A stretch of 64,000 nucleotides of DNA, taken from the NCBI RefSeq assembly GCF_965641715.1, contig NZ_OZ282453.1; one strand, written 5' to 3'. The DNA is from Escherichia coli. GTDB lineage: Bacteria > Pseudomonadota > Gammaproteobacteria > Enterobacterales > Enterobacteriaceae. Below the pieces are notes generated by a model. That model did not search any database and was not told where the DNA came from. It saw nothing but the letters and a program-made list of their open reading frames with translations. A program made the translations under genes and the position numbers. Of this stretch, positions 24,888 through 39,491 are shown in pieces (position 1 is the first letter of the stretch; every line of letters begins with the position of its first letter).

Positions 24888-25895
24888 TTAATTGGATGAA
24901 AAGTAAAGAGTTGTACTGGGGTATGCAAAATCTGCTTTGTGATTATGCACAATATCAACAATTCTCAGATAAACTTTTTGCTGAATGTCAAGCCACTCCT
25001 CCCAGTCCCTTGTATAAGTGAAACAATACACCATAATATTCAATGAGGAATCCCCAAACTCGTTAAAATAAACAAGCAACGTCTGTCTTTGATCTATACT
25101 CTCTTCATGCATAAGATAATTACGAATATCTTCCACAATGAGCGAAATTTTTTTAGAATCCTCATATCGTAAACCAATCGTTGTTTTTATTCTCCTATTA
25201 GTCATTCTACCAGGGTTTTCTAAAGAAATATCAGAAAATAATGAGTTTGGGATATACATTGGCCTGTTTTCAAAAGTAATTACCTTTGTCAATCTCCAGC
25301 CGATTTCAGCAACAACACCCTCGATATTTCTATCCGGTGAACGAATCCAATCACCAATGTTAAATGGACGATCAAAATATAGCATAACACCAGAGAAGAA
25401 ATTACTTAGAATATCTTTGCCAGCCATGCCAACAGCGATACCCCCAATCCCACCAAAGGCAAGCAACCCGGAAAAACTCATGCCAACTTGCTGGCCGAAA
25501 ACCAATAAAGATATCAATAAAACTATTATTTTTAGAACTTTTGAAATTACTCTTGAATCAGTTACATCACGCCCTTTACTTACTTGCCTTCTCTCTAAAT
25601 AATCAATAACAATAAATGCCTTTCGTATAAAAACAGTAACAATCAACAATATTGAAAGTATCCTTACCACTGTCCTGGAAAGATATTTTATGTGAAAACC
25701 ATCGATTAAAAAAGACAAGTAATCTCCGATCAAAATAATAATACACGACCAGAGAAGTAAACTTAACAAACATCCAATAACTATGTAGTTCTTCTTACTA
25801 AAGCGAACCATGTAAAAATTAACAACAAGCGCAACAATAGCCAACAGCATAAAAATTACGCCAAGTGAGTTATGAATAAAAACATCGCGAAACAT
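24888..25895 (-). CDS. MscS-family mechanosensitive channel-like membrane protein (AT-rich moron between lysis genes and cos)
   Basis: N-terminal TM helices, then the MscS core FGGIGGIAVGMAGKDILSNFFSGVMLYFDRPFNIGDWI...EGVVAEIGWRLTKV...IPNS; ATG at 25895 preceded by AGGTGA. Confidence 0.8.
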   Translation of the reverse strand: MFRDVFIHNSLGVIFMLLAIVALVVNFYMVRFSKKNYIVIGCLLSLLLWSCIIILIGDYLSFLIDGFHIKYLSRTVVRILSILLIVTVFIRKAFIVIDYLERRQVSKGRDVTDSRVISKVLKIIVLLISLLVFGQQVGMSFSGLLAFGGIGGIAVGMAGKDILSNFFSGVMLYFDRPFNIGDWIRSPDRNIEGVVAEIGWRLTKVITFENRPMYIPNSLFSDISLENPGRMTNRRIKTTIGLRYEDSKKISLIVEDIRNYLMHEESIDQRQTLLVYFNEFGDSSLNIMVYCFTYTRDWEEWLDIQQKVYLRIVDIVHNHKADFAYPSTTLYFSSN

Positions 25896-26412
25896 CAATA
25901 TCACCTATATATCAACTACATAGAAATACTACCACCCCCTTCACAAAAAAAACAAGCAAGTAAGCACATCTTTATTTGTAAAACAATTATACATTAGGCC
26001 AAATCGACGAAAACAATCATACATTCTCATTTTACAATAAAGAATTTCTAAAACAAAAAGATACTTATATAAAATCAGCAATACGGCGCTTTCAGGTTAT
26101 ATATGCTCCATACCCCTTTACGAAGGGGAAACCAATAAACCAATCTGATGACCTAGTCAACCAATGGATGCTCAATACGTTCACCATTTTTAGCAATTTC
26201 CACTCATACAGTCAGAAATTAAACAAGCTGTGATCATATTCATGGTTTATTCCTTTTAGTGATGAACCTTGCGCACAGGAATAACCAGCCAGAGAGGGTT
26301 AACCAGACCACTACCGGTTTTCCTCAAGACTCATCCTGAAAGGTTCTCTGTTCTGTATGCACTGTGCGAAGTGCAAAAAATAAGGCCGCAGAAGCGACCT
26401 TTTCCGATGCGT

Positions 26413-26967
26413 TTACAAACCAACACGCGCTTTCATCCAGCCATAGACAAAGGACTCGTTAGCCTCACGTTTCTCTGCCAGCGCCAGATAACGCTCCCCC
26501 TGTGTACAGTTCAGTGCTGTCAGCATCACCAGTTCGCCATCTTTACCGCGTTTTTCCAGGAATACACGTAGTGCGTTAATGGTTCGTGGGCCGATACACC
26601 CGTCTGTATCCATGTCCGGATACAGCATCCCCTTCTGGTTAAATACATTCAGCCAGCGCTGAAGCATCTTTGCCGCAACTGCCGGCCCCATGTTCACACC
26701 CGTGTCGCAAAGCTCTGCGGCAATGTCCGCAGACAGGTTTGCCACCTTGTCGAAATTCGGTCCGTACCAGTAGTCTGCCTCCAGAATTTCCAGCGCCTGC
26801 CCGCGGCTCAAATCACGCATATCGCCACGGTACCCATGTGACCGCGCCACTTTTTCAGTTATGCCCCACTTCGTTGCACCACCTGTATCGTCAGGGTGAC
26901 TGACGTAGCCCCCCTCTTTTCCCAGGATTTCATCAAAAACTTCATCTCTCGATTTCATATCAGCCAC
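26413..26967 (-). CDS. Endolysin, glycoside hydrolase family 108-like with peptidoglycan-binding domain
   Basis: N-terminal EGGYVSHPDDTGGATKWGIT motif typical of GH108; position in the lysis cassette. Confidence 0.7.
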   Translation of the reverse strand: MADMKSRDEVFDEILGKEGGYVSHPDDTGGATKWGITEKVARSHGYRGDMRDLSRGQALEILEADYWYGPNFDKVANLSADIAAELCDTGVNMGPAVAAKMLQRWLNVFNQKGMLYPDMDTDGCIGPRTINALRVFLEKRGKDGELVMLTALNCTQGERYLALAEKREANESFVYGWMKARVGL

Positions 26968-27238
26968 TCAGTAAGGCAAAAATTTTTGAAACATTACCGC
27001 GCGCACGAACAACCAGCACGCAGAACACCAGATTAATCATGACGACCAGCCAGTTACCGGGAAGGATTGTGCCGCAGAGAAAGGCAAGTGGCGGAAGTGC
27101 ATATACCGTCATCAGCAGCCAGGCCAGCAATGACACCAGCGGCTTATGTCTGGAATCACGACGACGATAAAAAAATAGCGTTGGCACGATAAACGAGCAC
27201 AACGCTACATTCAGCAATCCGGGAAGATTATTTGCCAT
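26960..27238 (-). CDS. Small membrane protein of the lysis cassette (holin/antiholin-like)
   Basis: About 92 aa, 2-3 predicted TM segments; translationally coupled between the holin and the endolysin. Confidence 0.5.
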   Translation of the reverse strand: MANNLPGLLNVALCSFIVPTLFFYRRRDSRHKPLVSLLAWLLMTVYALPPLAFLCGTILPGNWLVVMINLVFCVLVVRARGNVSKIFALLSG

Positions 27239-27617
27239 TACCACCACCTCCCCGTTGACGGGAGAACAGACCGGATACCAGCGATGTAATATCCTGCTGA
27301 TGGATGAATGACAGGACCTTTACTGAAACCACCGACACCAGTACTGCACACAACGCATCAACGGAAGCGCTGTCAAACCCAATACGCTCCGCCATATACC
27401 CCGCCACACCACGGGCCCCAAGAACACCAACAATAAAGGACACCAAGAAATGTGCAGCCACACGCCAGGCTGAAAGCGTCTGCGGCATTGTTGCCACAAA
27501 CAGCGCACCGGCAAAGGCACCAAACACAATCCCGAAATCCGTTCCGGTGAACAGCCCGAATACCGTCGCCCCGCCGAGCGCCGCGGCCGTACCGGAACCG
27601 GACAAGGGTTCAGACAT
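27228..27617 (-). CDS. Putative holin (start at MSEPLSGSG after AGGAG)
   Basis: 129 aa, Gly/Ala-rich TM helices, C-terminal charged tail; directly upstream of the endolysin. Confidence 0.6.
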   Translation of the reverse strand: MSEPLSGSGTAAALGGATVFGLFTGTDFGIVFGAFAGALFVATMPQTLSAWRVAAHFLVSFIVGVLGARGVAGYMAERIGFDSASVDALCAVLVSVVSVKVLSFIHQQDITSLVSGLFSRQRGGGGNGK

Positions 27618-27863
27618 ACCTTTTTTCTCCTGTAAATAAAAAAGAGCCACCAGCGGCCCACCAAAAAACACCCCGTCAAAGACACCTGCACCCACAGATG
27701 CCTTTTGTGTGGTGTTATTCAGATTTGCGCAGTAAAGGCCAGAGAACAACCATCACCATCGCTACCAGCACGCCATCAGCCAGAACCGACATCAGCCGTC
27801 CGGCAAAATCTACTGCCACTACCAGAAACAGCAGGATGGCAGCCAGCACAAGACGTGCACTTT

Positions 27864-28289
27864 TCACAGATACTGCTCCAGTGGTAACTGAAGCGCCTGT
27901 GCAATTTTCTTGAGCTGCGCTTCTTCATCCGGACTAATGCTATCCTGGTCAGCGATATCCAGACAGAGGCACAGTACGTCAACCGCCTCTGTTGTCCCTG
28001 CCACGTCAGCCAGCTGACGGAGGGCTTCAGCATTGGCAGAACGCGGGGATGCTTCATAACGGGCGCGGATATTGGCGCTCATCTGGGCAATCTCACCTGA
28101 GAACAGCGCAAAGGCCGGAAGTGCTGCAATGGTTTTCTCCAGCACTGCGATTTCTTTCGCGTCGCAGGTACCGTCAGCATATGCAATGGAATATGCGCCC
28201 CAGACGGTCGCTTCCACCGCATCGCGATTTTCCATCTTCTTCACCTCAACAATCGCCTTGCAGGTTTTCTTTTTGAAAATACCAAACAT
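27864..28289 (-). CDS. Hypothetical late-region protein (possible TerB-like fold)
   Basis: 141-aa ORF from MFGIFKKKTC with RBS; acidic helical protein; TerB assignment is a guess from composition only. Confidence 0.4.
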   Translation of the reverse strand: MFGIFKKKTCKAIVEVKKMENRDAVEATVWGAYSIAYADGTCDAKEIAVLEKTIAALPAFALFSGEIAQMSANIRARYEASPRSANAEALRQLADVAGTTEAVDVLCLCLDIADQDSISPDEEAQLKKIAQALQLPLEQYL

Positions 28290-28462
28290 CGTGACGTTTC
28301 CTTTTAGTGGGAGAGCCTCGCCCCGGGATGAGCAGCCCACAGAGAAAGTCACACCGACCATCCCGTAAGCTCCCCCCCCCTGAAAGGCTCTGTGGTTTTT
28401 GATGTGCACCGGACGTGGCGCGGATATGAAAAAAGCTCGCAGTAGCGGGCCTGGCTACAGGC

Positions 28463-28488
28463 AAAAAAATACCCGTCCGGAGACGGGC
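28463..28488 (-). terminator. Rho-independent terminator (minus strand)
   Basis: Minus strand GCCCGTCTCCGGACGGG hairpin followed by TATTTTTTT. Confidence 0.5.
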
Positions 28489-28533
28489 TAACACATTCAA
28501 CATGTAAGAGTGGAACAGCGTTTATTTTAAGTA

Positions 28534-28620
28534 TGGTCGCCGCCAGAATGAGTCGTCAGATTGCAACGCAATTCTGGCAAATCGCAGGCACCAAAACAGG
28601 CAACGACTCATTCTGGCAAC
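28534..28620. repeat. 15-bp perfect inverted repeat (GCCAGAATGAGTCGT / ACGACTCATTCTGGC) with nested alternative pairing and direct repeats, followed by a T-run
   Basis: Read directly: arms at 28534-28548 and 28595-28609; ATTCTGGCA and GGCAACGAC each occur twice. Confidence 0.7.
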
Positions 28621-28773
28621 GACTTTTTTCCAATAACGCAACTTCATGAACAAAAAAAAGAACAGCACTGTATCCGCTATTGCAGAATGGAGAACAATAA
28701 AAAACCTGAACTATTATTCAACTCGGAAAACCGCCAGTGCTGTAAAAGTCCGTCAGAAATAAAACAATGAAGT

Positions 28774-28850
28774 TGTGGAGAACAGGAATCGAACCTGCAT
28801 CGCCAACCCAGAAGGCTGCGGTAATAGCTACTATACGATACCTGAATAAA
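28774..28850 (-). tRNA. tRNA-like sequence, probably a 3' fragment or pseudo-tRNA (canonical T-arm, no acceptor stem found)
   Basis: Minus strand GCAGGTTCGATTCCTGT T-arm preceded by CCTTCTGG; no complementary 5' acceptor strand could be found by eye. Confidence 0.3.
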
Positions 28851-29358
28851 GAGCAGGCCTCCGTAACCACAATAATGATACTGATAACAGACCTTCAATA
28901 TGATTGAACGGAAGCCTACAATGAACCGCAAGACAGCGGGGAACACCGCTGTGAACATAAACTTGCTGTCTTCCGGGTCGGGAGTAATATTACCGATAAT
29001 TCATATGACATCAAAAACTAATTAGTTTTCAGATTTAAAAATATGTATAAATCTGTATCAATTACATACAGTTTATGTTATTCCATCCAGAATTCTGATT
29101 TCGCACAGGAGATTGCGTAAAAACTAACACAAATATAAACGATTTGGGAACACACTGATTCAGTTGTCGCAATAAATAACAGGAAACACTCCGGGAATAA
29201 CAGATCGCAAGACTTACATCAGCAGGAGTTTTTGCAACATTTAACGTTAATTGTATCGTTGATAGAAAATCTATGACGCAATATGGTGAACTAACAGAGC
29301 CTGACGAATATCCCAATTACGCCGAGCTAATAGCGCTGCCAGCTAAACTTGCATGGAA

Positions 29359-29435
29359 TGGTCCGCCACCGGGTGCTCGAACCTCGCACAATCAACTTAG
29401 AAGGCTGATGCTCTATCCAGATGAGCTGGTGGCGG
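29359..29435 (-). tRNA. tRNA-Arg (anticodon UCU)-like, phage-encoded; T-stem imperfect
   Basis: Acceptor stem CCGCCAC/GTGGCGG, D-arm GCTC-ATCTGGATA-GAGC, anticodon loop CTTCTAA, 3' ACCA; two mismatches in the T-stem. Confidence 0.55.
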
Positions 29436-29437
29436 AA

Positions 29438-29513
29438 TGGTGGCCCTTGCTGGATTTGAACCAGCGACCTGGCGATTATGAGTCGCTCGCTCTAACCACT
29501 GAGCTAAAGGGCC
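29438..29513 (-). tRNA. ileZ: tRNA-Ile2 (anticodon CAU, ileX/ileZ-like), phage-encoded
   Basis: Minus strand GGCCCTTTAGCTCAGTGGTTAGAGCGAGCGACTCATAATCGCCAGGTCGCTGGTTCAAATCCAGCAAGGGCCACCA is near-identical to recalled E. coli tRNA-Ile2. Confidence 0.85.
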
Positions 29514-29553: not shown

Positions 29554-30612
29554 TCATCCGTTCTGACTGACTAAATCCTGTACTTCCCTGACCGTCTGCT
29601 CAAAACGCTCAGTCTCCAGCTCAACACCAATCACACGACGTCCCTGCGCCATCGCTGCTTTGACTGTCGAACCTGACCCCATGAAGAAATCTGCAACCAG
29701 GTCTCCCGGACGGCTGCTTGCGCTGATTATCTGCTGCAACATTTCTGCCGGTTTTTCGCACGGGTGCTTCCCGGGATAGTACTGCACCGGTTTATGCGTC
29801 CACACATCGGTGTACGGCACCTGCACAGTCACACCGAAATACCGCCGCAAATTTTTATATTCACTCAGCAGTTCCGTATACTGCCGGTTCAGTTCACTGT
29901 ATGTGCTGACCAGTTGGTAATGTGGCTTTTCCAGTTCTCCGCACTGGTGCTTCTCTTCTGCCACTCGGGCAAACAGTGCCTGTAATTTCAGATAATCGCT
30001 TTCATTCGGTAGCTGCCACTGACTGGCACTGAACCAGTGCGACACCATGTTTTTCTTTCCTGTAGCATCCACAATCTGTTTTGCCGTAATCCCCAGGGCC
30101 GCACGCGCATCACAAAAGTAAGAAATCAGCGGGGCCATCACATGCTGTTTCAGAGCCCTGCCCTTTGCCGCATAGCCATCATTTTTTAGCTGATATGGCC
30201 CCTGATAATGTCCGGCAAACAGAATGCGCTCTGTTGCCGGAAAATACGCCCGCAGGCTTTCCTTGTTGCACCCGTTCCAACGTCCGGACGGCTTCGCCCA
30301 GATGATATGGTTAAGCACGTTGAAACGTTCACGCATCATGATCTCAATATCAGATGCCAGGCGATGTCCACAGAACAGGTAAAGGCTTCCGGCAGGTTTC
30401 AACACCCGCCAGAACTGGGCCAGACAGTGGTCCAGCCACTTAAGGTAACCTTCGTCCCCTTTCCACTGATTGTCCCAGCCGTTGGGTTTCACCTTGAAGT
30501 ACGGCGGATCGGTAACAATCAGGTCAATGGAATCATCAGGCAGGGACTGAATAAAATGCAGGCAATCAGCGTTGATCAAATCAACACTGTTTATTTTTAC
30601 AGTATTTTTCAT
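29554..30612 (-). CDS. Orphan DNA N6-adenine methyltransferase (DPPY motif)
   Basis: IDLIVTDPPYF catalytic motif and C-terminal FFMGSGST AdoMet motif; no adjacent restriction enzyme gene. Confidence 0.85.
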   Translation of the reverse strand: MKNTVKINSVDLINADCLHFIQSLPDDSIDLIVTDPPYFKVKPNGWDNQWKGDEGYLKWLDHCLAQFWRVLKPAGSLYLFCGHRLASDIEIMMRERFNVLNHIIWAKPSGRWNGCNKESLRAYFPATERILFAGHYQGPYQLKNDGYAAKGRALKQHVMAPLISYFCDARAALGITAKQIVDATGKKNMVSHWFSASQWQLPNESDYLKLQALFARVAEEKHQCGELEKPHYQLVSTYSELNRQYTELLSEYKNLRRYFGVTVQVPYTDVWTHKPVQYYPGKHPCEKPAEMLQQIISASSRPGDLVADFFMGSGSTVKAAMAQGRRVIGVELETERFEQTVREVQDLVSQNG

Positions 30613-30762: not shown

Positions 30763-30990
30763 TTACTGGCAGCGTCTGAATTTATTCCCGTACCCGCCGT
30801 TATCCTTCGCCAGACCCGCCAGAACTAACTGAGTCAGTATTAACTGGCACTGGGCTTCGCTTACTCCGGTAGTTCTCGTCATCATGCGTGGCGTTACCCA
30901 CTTGTCAGCAGGTAAGAAATGAAGGACTGCGGCGGCGGTTTCTGTCATATCTTGCTGTTTTAGCATGTCTTTTTCCCTTCTGGTTAACAT
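30763..30990 (-). CDS. Hypothetical small protein (possible winged-helix DNA-binding)
   Basis: 75-aa ORF between the rexA-like promoter region and the methyltransferase. Confidence 0.35.
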   Translation of the reverse strand: MLTRREKDMLKQQDMTETAAAVLHFLPADKWVTPRMMTRTTGVSEAQCQLILTQLVLAGLAKDNGGYGNKFRRCQ

Positions 30991-31244
30991 GACATACCAA
31001 TAACTCTTGTCTAAAAAGCCAGCAAGATAAAAAGTCAGTATTCACGACCACCAGCGTGTTTACTGTACTGCACCAGGTTTACAGGTACAAAAAACCGCTC
31101 GACGGCGGGTTTAAGCTGTGTGGCGAAGTAACCACTCTTAACAGATTAAGATAAAATTTGCGGACCGCGGTAATTTTTTTTGCTAAATTAAAGCCATATA
31201 AAAAATAAGATCCATAAGAAATTATTAGTATACTAAGGTTTAAC

Positions 31245-32186
31245 ATGGCTACTATTGCGCAATCAAAGAAACAAAAAAAACTTAAAATTGGTTTTTACAC
31301 CAGCAGTTCTGGGACTATCCGCAGCCATTCAGTTGCTAAGCAAGCAATTGAAAATCTGTATAATACTTGCGTAACCGTTACGAATAATCATTTTGATACC
31401 ATCTATAGAAATAAAAAGTTAAAAATAGCTTTTATAAATAAAGATACAAAAGCTAAATATTTCTTCGGCTACATGTCATGCTCACGAGAAGAGTATCTCC
31501 TTCCTTATATTGGTGATGAACACTGGAATGAGCACAACATACCACTAGATGATAAAAAATACATAGTCGAAAGAACCTATTTTTTATATTATTACGATAG
31601 TGATATTTTAATATTAACTCAAAATCATCTTGGGCCGAAAGAATCGGATTTAGCTTATCTGCTTTACAGCCAGAGTGGTAATCCTGGAAATAACTTTTCA
31701 TTCCAAGCCATCTGGAAAAAAGAGAGCGTCAAAGAGCTACTTGAAACAGGAAGTACTTTGAGAAGTTGTGATATTGTCCTGGCTGCTCCCAGGAACTTTG
31801 ATGCAACAAATTACCAGCTAAATAGTTCATTTTCTAAGGAACTGGTAAATATGATGGTAGGGCTGGGTGGAACACGTCTCAAGTTAAATCTAAGGGGACG
31901 TGCATCAGGGAGAGTAAAAGTCAAAGGTTATTTATCAGATCTCGTTAAGGATGGTATTAAAGAACTCCTTGAAAAAATGCCGGGAATTGTAAAAAAAGCG
32001 GCAGTAACACAGCCCAAAAATACCGTTGAACAAAGTCTTCTTGATCAGGTACTCATTTCAGAAAAAAACATATATACCGTTAATGGTTATGGCACTGATA
32101 GTGATGTTCTGCAAGCCATGATTTCTGCTAAAATTGATAACAATGAATACCTTAAGCAATACGATATCAGCAAAAAGAAGGTATAG
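31245..32186 (+). CDS. RexA-like protein (remote homolog of lambda RexA)
   Basis: 313 aa, AT-rich; local matches to recalled lambda RexA (KIGFYTSS vs KNGFYATY; LGPKESDLAYLL vs FGPTTSDLTDFL); 3 nt upstream of the rexB-like gene. Confidence 0.6.
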   Translation: MATIAQSKKQKKLKIGFYTSSSGTIRSHSVAKQAIENLYNTCVTVTNNHFDTIYRNKKLKIAFINKDTKAKYFFGYMSCSREEYLLPYIGDEHWNEHNIPLDDKKYIVERTYFLYYYDSDILILTQNHLGPKESDLAYLLYSQSGNPGNNFSFQAIWKKESVKELLETGSTLRSCDIVLAAPRNFDATNYQLNSSFSKELVNMMVGLGGTRLKLNLRGRASGRVKVKGYLSDLVKDGIKELLEKMPGIVKKAAVTQPKNTVEQSLLDQVLISEKNIYTVNGYGTDSDVLQAMISAKIDNNEYLKQYDISKKKV

Positions 32187-32189
32187 GAT

Positions 32190-32633
32190 ATGTTATTGAA
32201 ATACTTAAGAAACCTGATTGTAAGTGTTTTTTGCACCTTGTTCCTACTGAGGTATATCCCTCAGATGGGGCATGCTGACATACTTACAGCCTCCGGGGTT
32301 ATTTCAACTGTATCCGGTATTTTATTTGGTTTTATTTTAGCCACAATATCAATTTTTAGTGCTGCTAGCGAAAACTCAAATGGAATAATAAAAGCATTAA
32401 AAAACAACAACATACTTCAAGTTATTATTGTAAATCTATTAACCGCAGGTGCATCTTTAATTACGGCATGCGTTATTGCTTTGATAGCAATGTTTGCCAA
32501 TGAAAAGACATTGTTACATGGAGAAAAAATAGAATTTATTTTAATTATCGAATCTTTATCTCTTCTTATCATTTCAGTAATAACTTTTGCCTTTACATGG
32601 AGAAAAGTAAACTGGATACTCCCCCACATTTAA
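32190..32633 (+). CDS. RexB-like 4-TM membrane protein
   Basis: 147 aa; N-terminal LIVSVFCTLFLLRYIPQ vs recalled lambda RexB VIVSICYLLFRHYIPG; multi-pass TM, similar length (lambda RexB is 144 aa). Confidence 0.65.
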   Translation: MLLKYLRNLIVSVFCTLFLLRYIPQMGHADILTASGVISTVSGILFGFILATISIFSAASENSNGIIKALKNNNILQVIIVNLLTAGASLITACVIALIAMFANEKTLLHGEKIEFILIIESLSLLIISVITFAFTWRKVNWILPHI

Positions 32634-32656
32634 AAAGGGCAGAAATGCCCTTTTTT

Positions 32657-33019
32657 CTACTCCATTTCAAGTTTAACATCCAGCATTGAAAGGCATCCAT
32701 CAATAAACCCTTCAGCCATCTGTATCTCTATACGTATCAATTTCTCATCTTTTTTGCGAGCTCTTGCAAGCTTTCTTTTCGAGATGCCATACAGGTAATG
32801 GGCCACAATCAAAGAATGCTCGTACGGTTTTCGCTTTTTAAGAAGAGCAAGACAACCTTCAATAATTAATGCATCACTATCTGAACAAGCCTGACGTGTT
32901 TTGCTTGTATAGGGAAGAAGCCCTTTAAACCCAGCAGCTATAGGAGAATAGTCTACTCCTGAACTATCACTCGCCGCCCATGCTCCCCAACGATCCAGAA
33001 CCATTTGAATATCACGCAT
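32657..33019 (-). CDS. Antitermination protein Q (QuuD-like family)
   Basis: MRDIQMVLDRWGAWAA...AEGFIDGCLSMLDVKLEME resembles DLP12 QuuD; position after rusA/DUF968. Confidence 0.75.
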   Translation of the reverse strand: MRDIQMVLDRWGAWAASDSSGVDYSPIAAGFKGLLPYTSKTRQACSDSDALIIEGCLALLKKRKPYEHSLIVAHYLYGISKRKLARARKKDEKLIRIEIQMAEGFIDGCLSMLDVKLEME

Positions 33020-33036
33020 CAACTTTCTCCACAAAA

Positions 33037-38816: not shown

Positions 38817-39491
38817 ATGAAAACAATCCATGACATCCGGCGGTCTAACGCCAGAAAACTGAGAGATGGTGTTGGCGGGAATTCTTCCTTTGCCACCATG
38901 ATTGATCGCGAGCCAACCCAGACCAGCAGGTTTATGGGAGATGGTGCTACTAAAAATATCGGTGACAGCATGGCGCGGCACATCGAAAAATGTTTCGACC
39001 TGCCTGTCGGATGGCTTGATCAAGAACACCAGACCACGAACATCACAAAAAAACCTGATGTTTCAATCACTAACAAACAAATAACGTTAGTCCCTGTCAT
39101 ATCATGGGTACAGGCCGGAGCATGGAAAGAAGTTGGCTATTCTGAGGTTGATTTGAGCACAGCAGAAACTTACCCCTGCCCTGTACCCTGTGGCGAAATG
39201 ACTTATATCTTGCGGGTGATTGGTGATTCAATGATTGATGAGTACCGCCCTGGAGACATGATTTTTGTTGATCCCGAAGTCCCTGCCTGCCACGGTGACG
39301 ACGTTATTGCATTGATGCACGATACAGGCGAAACCACCTTCAAGCGATTGATAGAAGATGGAACACAGCGTTATCTCAAAGCATTAAACCCAAACTGGCC
39401 TGAGCCTTACATTAAGATTAACGGTAATTGCTCTATAATTGGTACAGTGATTTTCTCGGGAAAACCAAGAAGATACACAATAAAGGCCTAA
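38817..39491 (+). CDS. cI: CI-like repressor (HTH + S24 LexA-type autopeptidase domain)
   Basis: N-terminal HTH, C-terminal GDSM serine motif and downstream Lys; divergent from cro-like gene. Confidence 0.85.
   Translation: MKTIHDIRRSNARKLRDGVGGNSSFATMIDREPTQTSRFMGDGATKNIGDSMARHIEKCFDLPVGWLDQEHQTTNITKKPDVSITNKQITLVPVISWVQAGAWKEVGYSEVDLSTAETYPCPVPCGEMTYILRVIGDSMIDEYRPGDMIFVDPEVPACHGDDVIALMHDTGETTFKRLIEDGTQRYLKALNPNWPEPYIKINGNCSIIGTVIFSGKPRRYTIKA

Follow-up and report, generated by a model that had tools for sequence, protein, structure and literature searches.

A prophage gene pair next to the antiterminator Q of Escherichia coli that probably encodes a very divergent RexAB-type exclusion system

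RexAB of bacteriophage lambda is the oldest known abortive-infection system. Here we describe an AT-rich cassette of two genes, situated between positions 31245 and 32633 of a 64,000-nucleotide stretch of Escherichia coli DNA (contig NZ_OZ282453.1 of assembly GCF_965641715.1; the whole stretch is called the window below). The setting of the cassette is a mosaic lambdoid prophage, in which it lies between the gene for the antiterminator Q and the lysis genes. It is probably an accessory operon of the prophage and encodes a two-component phage-exclusion system of the RexAB type, although a very divergent one. Its two genes are as follows.

31245-32186, plus strand: rexA-like gene for protein A (313 amino acids), an open reading frame (ORF) matching Pfam DUF6731 and phrog_7651
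32190-32633, plus strand: rexB-like gene for protein B (147 amino acids, four transmembrane (TM) helices), an ORF belonging to phrog_8552

Five Rex-like systems have been described to date (PMC12894663). Prophage P1 of Pseudomonas putida carries RexABpp (PP_5643/PP_5644; Rosendahl et al. 2026), a proven two-gene defence in which the membrane partner is the growth-arresting effector, and of the other four RexAB-like systems on record, three follow the lambda scheme in that the membrane protein is the effector (PMC12894663). Linkage to the immunity region and to CI is not universal among the accepted systems (PMC11077077).

The lambda genes rexA and rexB (PF15969 and PF15968; RexA structure, PDB 8TWQ) are likewise an adjacent, co-oriented pair in a temperate phage. 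In both cases the gene for a soluble protein of about 300 residues comes first and that for a membrane protein of four helices and about 145 residues second, and both pairs are accessory and non-essential to the phage. Protein A has the RexA fold in its predicted model and full-length profile homology to RexA. Protein B has the length and topology of RexB and a related motif in the second TM helix (TM2) and the following loop. However, protein A is 34 residues longer than RexA and belongs to a different Pfam family, and the cassette is not part of a cI operon. It lies 6.2 kb from the CI-like repressor gene, in agreement with the distance of about 6 kb given in a preliminary description of the locus, is convergent with Q, and has its own terminator. 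Co-transcription with CI in an immunity region is thus absent here, although it is found in some relatives of the pair (see below). The architecture is RexAB-like and the mechanism probably the same, in a separate and far larger sequence family with a different placement and transcription unit.

RexABpp, a pair equally remote from lambda RexAB, resembles the cassette in being prophage-borne and in having a four-helix membrane partner without detectable similarity to RexB. It differs in the larger size of RexApp (37.5 kDa with its tag) and of RexBpp (at least 181 residues), and in being located downstream of a CI-like repressor and not beside Q. The RexApp termini derived from primers (MHRTATFV..., ...YNKQSRLMV) matched none of the proteins compared. 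The actinobacteriophage pairs Sbash gp30/gp31, CarolAnn gp44/gp43 and Butters gp30/gp31, compared by description only, also consist of a cytosolic RexA-like and a membrane RexB-like protein of a temperate phage. They exclude heterologous phages, their RexA-like proteins dimerise and bind DNA non-specifically, and their position relative to the repressor varies. They come from other hosts and their proteins are larger (337-372 amino acids).

Other proteins are more distant from the pair. RdgC and the kinetochore proteins IML3, CHL4 and CENP-N, which belong to the RexA structural superfamily, obtain scores far lower than that of RexA, lack a membrane partner and take part in unrelated biology. 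Kiwa is a two-gene defence system composed of a multi-pass membrane protein, KwaA, and a soluble DNA-acting protein of about 300 residues, KwaB (DUF4868). Its gene order is reversed relative to that of the A-B pair, no Kiwa structure was among the PDB fold hits, and DUF4868 did not appear in the Pfam scan. No PADLOC model matched A or B at E ≤ 1 and NCBIfam gave nothing for either, so Kiwa was discarded along with all other defence systems in the catalogues.

Both ORFs are conserved in homologues down to about 20% identity, and there is therefore little doubt that they are real genes. Protein A is basic (isoelectric point 9.25) and cytoplasmic. It matches DUF6731 (PF20505) with an independent E-value of 2.1e-10 over residues 34-260 and phrog_7651, a family of unknown function, with E = 1e-151. 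The identical RefSeq protein is named 'DUF6731 family protein'. The close family of protein A consists of 45 clusters from Enterobacterales and Vibrio, in which G130, P131, D135 and L140 are invariant. When a profile of the close relatives was compared with 1.84 billion cluster representatives, 231 DUF6731 relatives were found at E ≤ 1e-3, each representing a cluster at 50% identity and most having a length of 285-305 amino acids.

The motifs GFY and GPxxSDLxxxL, from which the preliminary description had derived its comparison of protein A with RexA, are present and collinear in both proteins, and the same motifs are aligned by hhalign. The resemblance is seen over the full length of the protein when profiles are compared, but it escapes pairwise comparison and the Pfam RexA model: BLASTP of A against lambda RexA gave a non-significant E-value of 0.25, the aligned segment being GPxxSDL. 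Shallow alignments were insufficient for both A and B, and distant family members were needed. With 176 diverse DUF6731 sequences (Neff 6.6) on one side and 25 RexA sequences on the other, hhalign returned a probability of 89% and E = 2.3e-6 over 252 columns in local mode, and a probability of 94.9% and E = 1.1e-8 in global mode, the two modes covering 252-258 columns. The alignment places residues 14-307 of protein A onto residues 1-269 of RexA, that is, end to end. Reversed and block-shuffled RexA profiles, used as controls, scored 13-24 (P ≥ 0.011), compared with 48.5 for the real profile. By this profile-profile comparison, protein A is a remote homologue of RexA.

The AlphaFold2 model of protein A (predicted local distance difference test score, pLDDT, 81.8) has a group of seven strands, a group of four strands, and a C-terminal helix that is broken at residues 298-300. 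RexA consists of a split globular domain with a seven-stranded sheet, an inserted dimerisation domain with a four-stranded sheet and helices, and a kinked C-terminal helix, alpha-8 (PMC11077077). The predicted model of A fits this published topology. In two phage records, ON470608.1 (30253-31191) and ON470622.1 (15461-16399), from Escherichia phages vB_EcoS-733R5 and vB_EcoS-716R3, an 87%-identical homologue of protein A is labelled 'portal (connector) protein'. This looks like a misannotation.

Protein B belongs to phrog_8552, another family of unknown function, and Pfam gives nothing for it. Its length of 147 amino acids is close to the 144 amino acids of RexB, and its hydrophobic segments (8-26, 30-61, 74-106 and 112-138) correspond in number and position to those of RexB (3-28, 42-70, ~79-106 and 113-137). 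Clusters of lysine and arginine residues mark the N-terminus and the TM2-TM3 loop of both proteins, and also the C-terminus, where the cluster is less clear in RexB. The AlphaFold2 model is that of a four-helix protein (pLDDT 85.6). B is an inner-membrane protein, and by the positive-inside rule alone its basic TM2-TM3 loop would be in the cytoplasm. The RexB N-terminus quoted in the preliminary description was correct, and the multi-pass membrane character and matching length that it pointed out are borne out. At the level of sequence the likeness is slight: BLASTP against lambda RexB aligned the N-terminal segment with E = 0.012, which is not significant, and the Pfam RexB model gave no match.

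The comparison of the B family with RexB depended on the sequences included. RexB sequences were taken from 26 viral contigs that carry rexA, and B partners from the distant DUF6731 contigs together with a scan of viral and metagenome contigs for the back-translated motif EGL-EKN-F. As the diversity of the partners was increased, the hhalign P-value fell from 0.14 to 0.0023 and then to 5.5e-4. The final score of 27.7 exceeded those of all 40 block shuffles, the highest of which was 19.8. The aligned core is formed by TM2 and the next loop and has the pattern AGT...(I/L)..A(L/M)(S/T), after which come a run of basic residues and (T/Y)G(H/Y). When 1,710 ORFs from metagenome loci were searched with a RexB-family hidden Markov model (HMM), seven matches were obtained (E from 1e-4 to 1.6e-3), all seven directly downstream of a DUF6731 gene. 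Among 28 members of the B family compared with Pfam, RexB was the top family by member count, with all matches sub-threshold, two at E ≤ 0.1 and the best having an independent E-value of 2.2e-3. A further family, phrog_17119, weakly connects RexB and the distant B proteins. Homology of B to RexB is thus likely but not proven.

An identity of B as a holin or antiholin was ruled out by the opposite strand of the gene, by its obligate pairing with A and by the loci that have no lysis genes. In the corresponding locus of NZ_CP062203.1 (L122, 15021-15389, equivalent to window 32265-32633), the gene called by the Prokaryotic Genome Annotation Pipeline (PGAP) encodes 122 amino acids starting at the internal Met26, so that the first TM helix is lost. 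Because the 147-residue form is full-length in homologues of about 70% identity, the RefSeq start is probably wrong.

The two genes travel together. Protein A is followed by B in all nine viral loci, in 16 of the 17 metagenome loci with room for a second gene, the sole exception having a truncated A, and in three of four distant contigs, the fourth of which stops just after A. In Pseudomonas phage AUS531phi a Cro/CI-family repressor, A and B stand in this order and are co-oriented, which is the arrangement of cI, rexA and rexB in lambda, and in two other loci (L043 and L051) the pair lies a few genes downstream of a CI- or DicA-like repressor. Elsewhere it adjoins the type I restriction subunit HsdR (L055 and L056) or an integrase (L114). 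A pair with an A protein of 38% identity is found directly after the integrase of Vibrio phage 10N.286.54.F4_PE001 (Vinavirales; L130, 1389-2896), a tectivirus-like element of 14.6 kb, showing that the A-B family crosses very different types of virus. A profile scan of genome contigs with the close-family alignment found two loci. The cassette itself is present in 24 of 5,426 complete E. coli genomes, in eight of which the genes are 100% identical, and in six of 50,697 phage records; with so few carriers, it must be dispensable for this type of phage. One strain with an identical cassette, E. coli K_EC180, has in addition a SLATT-domain protein and a reverse transcriptase at the edge of a degraded prophage next to prfC (L122, 1652-3551, outside the window). 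The two form a defence pair of the retron-like or Abi-like kind.

By analogy with lambda RexAB and P. putida RexABpp, the pair would function in abortive infection. A promoter of its own would drive its transcription in the lysogen. A dimer of protein A would bind DNA non-specifically and sense a DNA or protein-DNA intermediate of the infecting phage. Once activated, A would trigger oligomers of B in the inner membrane, and B would dissipate the membrane potential or the integrity of the membrane. The infected cell would then stop growing, the superinfecting phage would be aborted and the lysogen population would be protected.

A number of results weigh against this assignment. The curated Pfam models for both Rex proteins are silent: the RexA model (PF15969) did not match protein A even at E ≤ 10, while it recognised lambda RexA itself with 1.7e-96, and the RexB model (PF15968) did not match protein B. 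The claim of a divergent RexAB-type module made in the preliminary description is supported by the profile homology of A and by the topology and the weak but specific links of B. Scans with PADLOC, even at E ≤ 1, and with NCBIfam gave nothing for either protein. A sequence-profile search of the PDB with the close-family alignment produced noise only and did not retrieve RexA, and hhalign restricted to the close relatives gave P = 0.036 against the 25 RexA sequences. The best B-RexB link, with the P-value of 5.5e-4, extends over only 39 columns of compositionally biased membrane helices, and a fold search of BFVD with B retrieved uncharacterised phage proteins and no RexB. A consensus promoter scan upstream of A found no site on the plus strand. 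In the literature searched, no paper mentioned DUF6731, PF20505, the phrog families or the protein accessions. Finally, a difference from lambda concerns the DNA-contact residues R219 and K221 of RexA, which have no basic counterparts in the alignment with A: hhalign, which is unreliable at the resolution of single residues, aligns them to P257 and N259. Basic positions conserved across the A family (K250, K251 and K/R253) are 4-8 residues away.

The lack of conservation of the DNA-contact residues in the alignment and the weakness of the B-RexB homology would also be accommodated if the pair were a defence or superinfection-exclusion system with a RexA fold and a membrane partner that worked in another way, A being a cytosolic toxic effector held in check by B, or B blocking DNA entry at the envelope. 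A precedent is found in phage Butters, where the roles of gp30 and gp31 are reversed and the cytosolic partner is the effector (PMC12894663), which also counts against a lambda-like mechanism here. We regard this possibility as unlikely, given that B has the topology of RexB and its TM2-loop motif, that neither Kiwa (KwaA, KwaB) nor any other PADLOC model matches, and that the membrane protein is the effector in three of the four other RexAB-like systems mentioned above.

The position of the cassette beside Q is neither unique to this prophage nor recent. Alleles with an A protein 87%, 62% and 44% identical to that of the window occur in E. coli prophages. Those of 62% and 44% are in exactly the same place, convergent with a Q gene of the PF06530 type, and those of 87% and 44% are divergent from a neighbouring holin gene; for the 87% and 62% alleles, the contig stops on one side of the pair. 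When the window is compared with two of the related loci (L123 and L125), the backbone genes are highly similar (98-99% identity for DUF968 and RusA, 89-100% for KilA-N and 86-88% for Q), whereas the cassette is not (46-62% for A and 44-54% for B). Allele identities of 44-62% within backbones of 86-100% are the pattern expected of an arms-race locus. In eight further loci an A protein of only 21-26% identity is found in the same convergent position, next to a Q of 53-58% identity, and in one of these Q-slot loci, L039, the holin, endolysin and spanin genes are on the other side of the cassette. In every Q-slot case the A+T content of the cassette exceeds that of the surrounding DNA. The pair does stand beside Q and away from cI, as the preliminary description said, but its term 'relocated' is too simple. 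The Q slot recurs in lineages that are 21-26% identical, and other relatives adjoin CI, type I restriction genes or integrases, so that the association with Q is long-standing and recurrent and not the result of a single move.

This old and recurrent association, maintained with Q proteins as little as 53-58% identical, might indicate that the pair serves the development of the prophage. The RexA-like DNA-binding protein would then adjust the switch between lysogeny and lysis or the late transcription that depends on Q, and its membrane partner would counteract or sequester it or set the timing of lysis. The cassette is located between Q and a segment that may be the late promoter region (see below). 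In lambda, RexA also acts separately on the choice between lysis and lysogeny, which is a point against a purely defensive function: it biases the bistable CI/Cro switch without RexB, and RexB antagonises RexA (PMC11077077). However, the relatives next to type I restriction genes and integrases and in the tectivirus-like Vibrio element are all without Q, an essential regulator would not be expected to be 44-62% identical in backbones that are 86-100% identical, and the cassette is missing from most of the genomes and phage records (present in 24 of 5,426 and 6 of 50,697). A developmental role is accordingly improbable. That the pair is a lysogenic-conversion moron unrelated to phages, with a host-fitness or envelope function and a RexA-like fold used as a generic DNA-binding scaffold, or perhaps a decaying passenger, is very improbable, since in spite of its foreign, AT-rich composition, the virulence genes, stx2 among them, that close relatives of the backbone carry downstream of Q and the silence of the defence databases, both ORFs are intact, their pairing is kept across sequences about 20% identical, the genes are 100% identical in eight of the 24 carrying E. 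coli genomes, and related pairs have defence-like neighbourhoods (HsdR, a CI immunity region, the vicinity of integrases).

On the favoured reading, that of an accessory RexAB-type operon, the cassette would have its own promoter. The non-coding elements at its two ends are the following.

32632-32655, both strands: bidirectional intrinsic terminator, a G+C-rich hairpin with a flanking A-run and T-run, identified by folding
31180-31244, plus strand: upstream non-coding region expected to hold the promoter, with TTGCTA at 31180-31185, TATACT at 31229-31234 and a Shine-Dalgarno-like AAGG at 31235-31238
31075-31179, minus strand: left boundary, a conserved non-coding segment with a minus-strand hairpin and T-run at 31094-31106

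The terminator folds with -13.4 kcal/mol on the plus strand (z = -4.6, none of 200 shuffles being as good) and with -13.0 kcal/mol on the minus strand (z = -3.4). The strong fold on both strands, between an A-run and a T-run, identifies it as a bidirectional terminator, which the cassette shares with the convergent Q gene. In L123 and L125 different hairpins occupy the same place between B and Q.

The promoter is less clear. The blocks TTTTTTG(C/A)TAAATTAAAG and ATTAGT(A/G)TACTAAGG are common to the window and the 87%-identical allele (L128), in which TTGCTA and TATACT are partly conserved. These hexamers had been put forward as a candidate promoter. Both are present, but they are 43 nucleotides apart and cannot be the -35 and -10 elements of one sigma-70 promoter. 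If TATACT were a -10 element, the transcript would, speculatively, start a few bases before the ATG. The hairpin at 31158-31170 has a fold no better than that of shuffled sequence.

On the left, the region 31000-31150 is 95% identical to phages mEp460 and Ayreon, in the latter of which it is annotated 'terminator', and to Stx2c phages; the segment is conserved in many lambdoid and Stx phages. Among the alleles, L123, L125 and L128 keep the boundary as far as about 31145, beyond which they diverge. The terminator-like hairpin at 31094-31106 folds no better than shuffles. We infer that the segment from 31075 may hold the late promoter and the early terminator through which Q works. In that case the cassette would separate Q from its target and stand outside the late operon.

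The coordinates and lengths of the ORFs, their spacing, their orientation opposite to the neighbours and the contrast in composition all agree with the two-gene cassette as first described. The TAG stop codon of A is separated by three nucleotides from the ATG of B, which is preceded by a GAAGG ribosome-binding site. The G+C content is 0.30-0.40 along the cassette and 0.50-0.57 on either side (0.34 for the whole cassette, 0.53 for the flank). The cassette is on the plus strand and both flanking sets of genes are on the minus strand. Being AT-rich and having its own terminator, the A-B pair is moron-like. The region 31000-32700 is 99.9% identical to phage cdtI, where the two genes appear as orf54 and orf53, without names. 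A search of the rest of the window for a canonical rexA or rexB found none, the RexA-family HMM built here giving no match in it. The neighbouring features are listed below.

32657-33034, minus strand: antiterminator Q gene (phrog_79, E = 5e-45), convergent with the cassette; context, outside the module
38817-39491, plus strand: CI-like repressor gene, 6.2 kb from the cassette
30763-30990, minus strand: gene for a 75-residue protein, left flank
29554-30612, minus strand: DNA methylase gene, left flank
29438-29513, minus strand: tRNA-Met, between the methylase and holin genes
29359-29435, minus strand: tRNA-Arg(tct), between the methylase and holin genes
27864-28409, minus strand: TerB-like 'tellurite resistance' gene (phrog_632), left flank
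27767-27858, minus strand: tRNA-Arg(tct), between the methylase and holin genes
26413-27749, minus strand: two holin genes and an endolysin gene

The orthologous Q genes of L123 and L125 are recorded as PF06530, and the PGAP annotation of Q reads 'antiterminator Q family protein'. The longest Q ORF of the window has a TTG start and encodes 125 amino acids; its orthologues are called with 121-122 amino acids from the methionine of MRDIQ. The part of Q that varies most among alleles is the C-terminal third, which is nearest to the cassette. The tRNA genes together with the TerB-like gene (27767-29513) resemble the tRNA/moron region of Stx phages. An AT-rich gene at 24888-25904 on the minus strand, downstream of the lysis genes, encodes a multi-pass membrane protein of 338 residues without a PHROG match, the C-terminal half of which looks, by eye, similar to an MscS-type mechanosensitive channel. 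It may be another moron. About half of the segment 20000-44000 matches the Stx2k-converting phage phiSTEC1575-Stx2k (OQ243220.1) at 96.5% identity, with both Stx2 subunit A and the DUF968 gene falling in the matched part. A closely related backbone has stx2 downstream of Q. The same backbone can thus bear toxin or Rex-like cargo near Q.

It is possible, and put forward here only tentatively, that DUF6731 proteins and their four-helix partners are a large, unrecognised branch of the RexAB superfamily, distributed over proteobacterial defence islands and temperate phages. Within this branch, one lineage would have become fixed between Q and the lambdoid late promoter, in a defence hotspot where it evolves far faster than the backbone, and its expression could be shut off upon prophage induction. 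As a matter of speculation, transcription that enters from the early-right operon and crosses Q runs toward the cassette and could damp it when the prophage is induced. Such a shut-off would prevent self-abortion, because the pair faces the early-right operon.

If the RexAB assignment is true, the Pfam family of unknown function DUF6731 and its partner join the RexAB superfamily, providing many divergent sequences for comparison. Conserved motifs that can be mutated are the GP..D....L following strand 6 of protein A, and the AGT...GF in TM2 and the T-G-H in the next loop of protein B. The cassette would be a second genetically tractable native case in E. coli. Between Q and the late promoter, lambdoid prophages of the Stx and cdt types may have a variable defence locus, which would be relevant to phage therapy and to the dissemination of toxin-converting phages.

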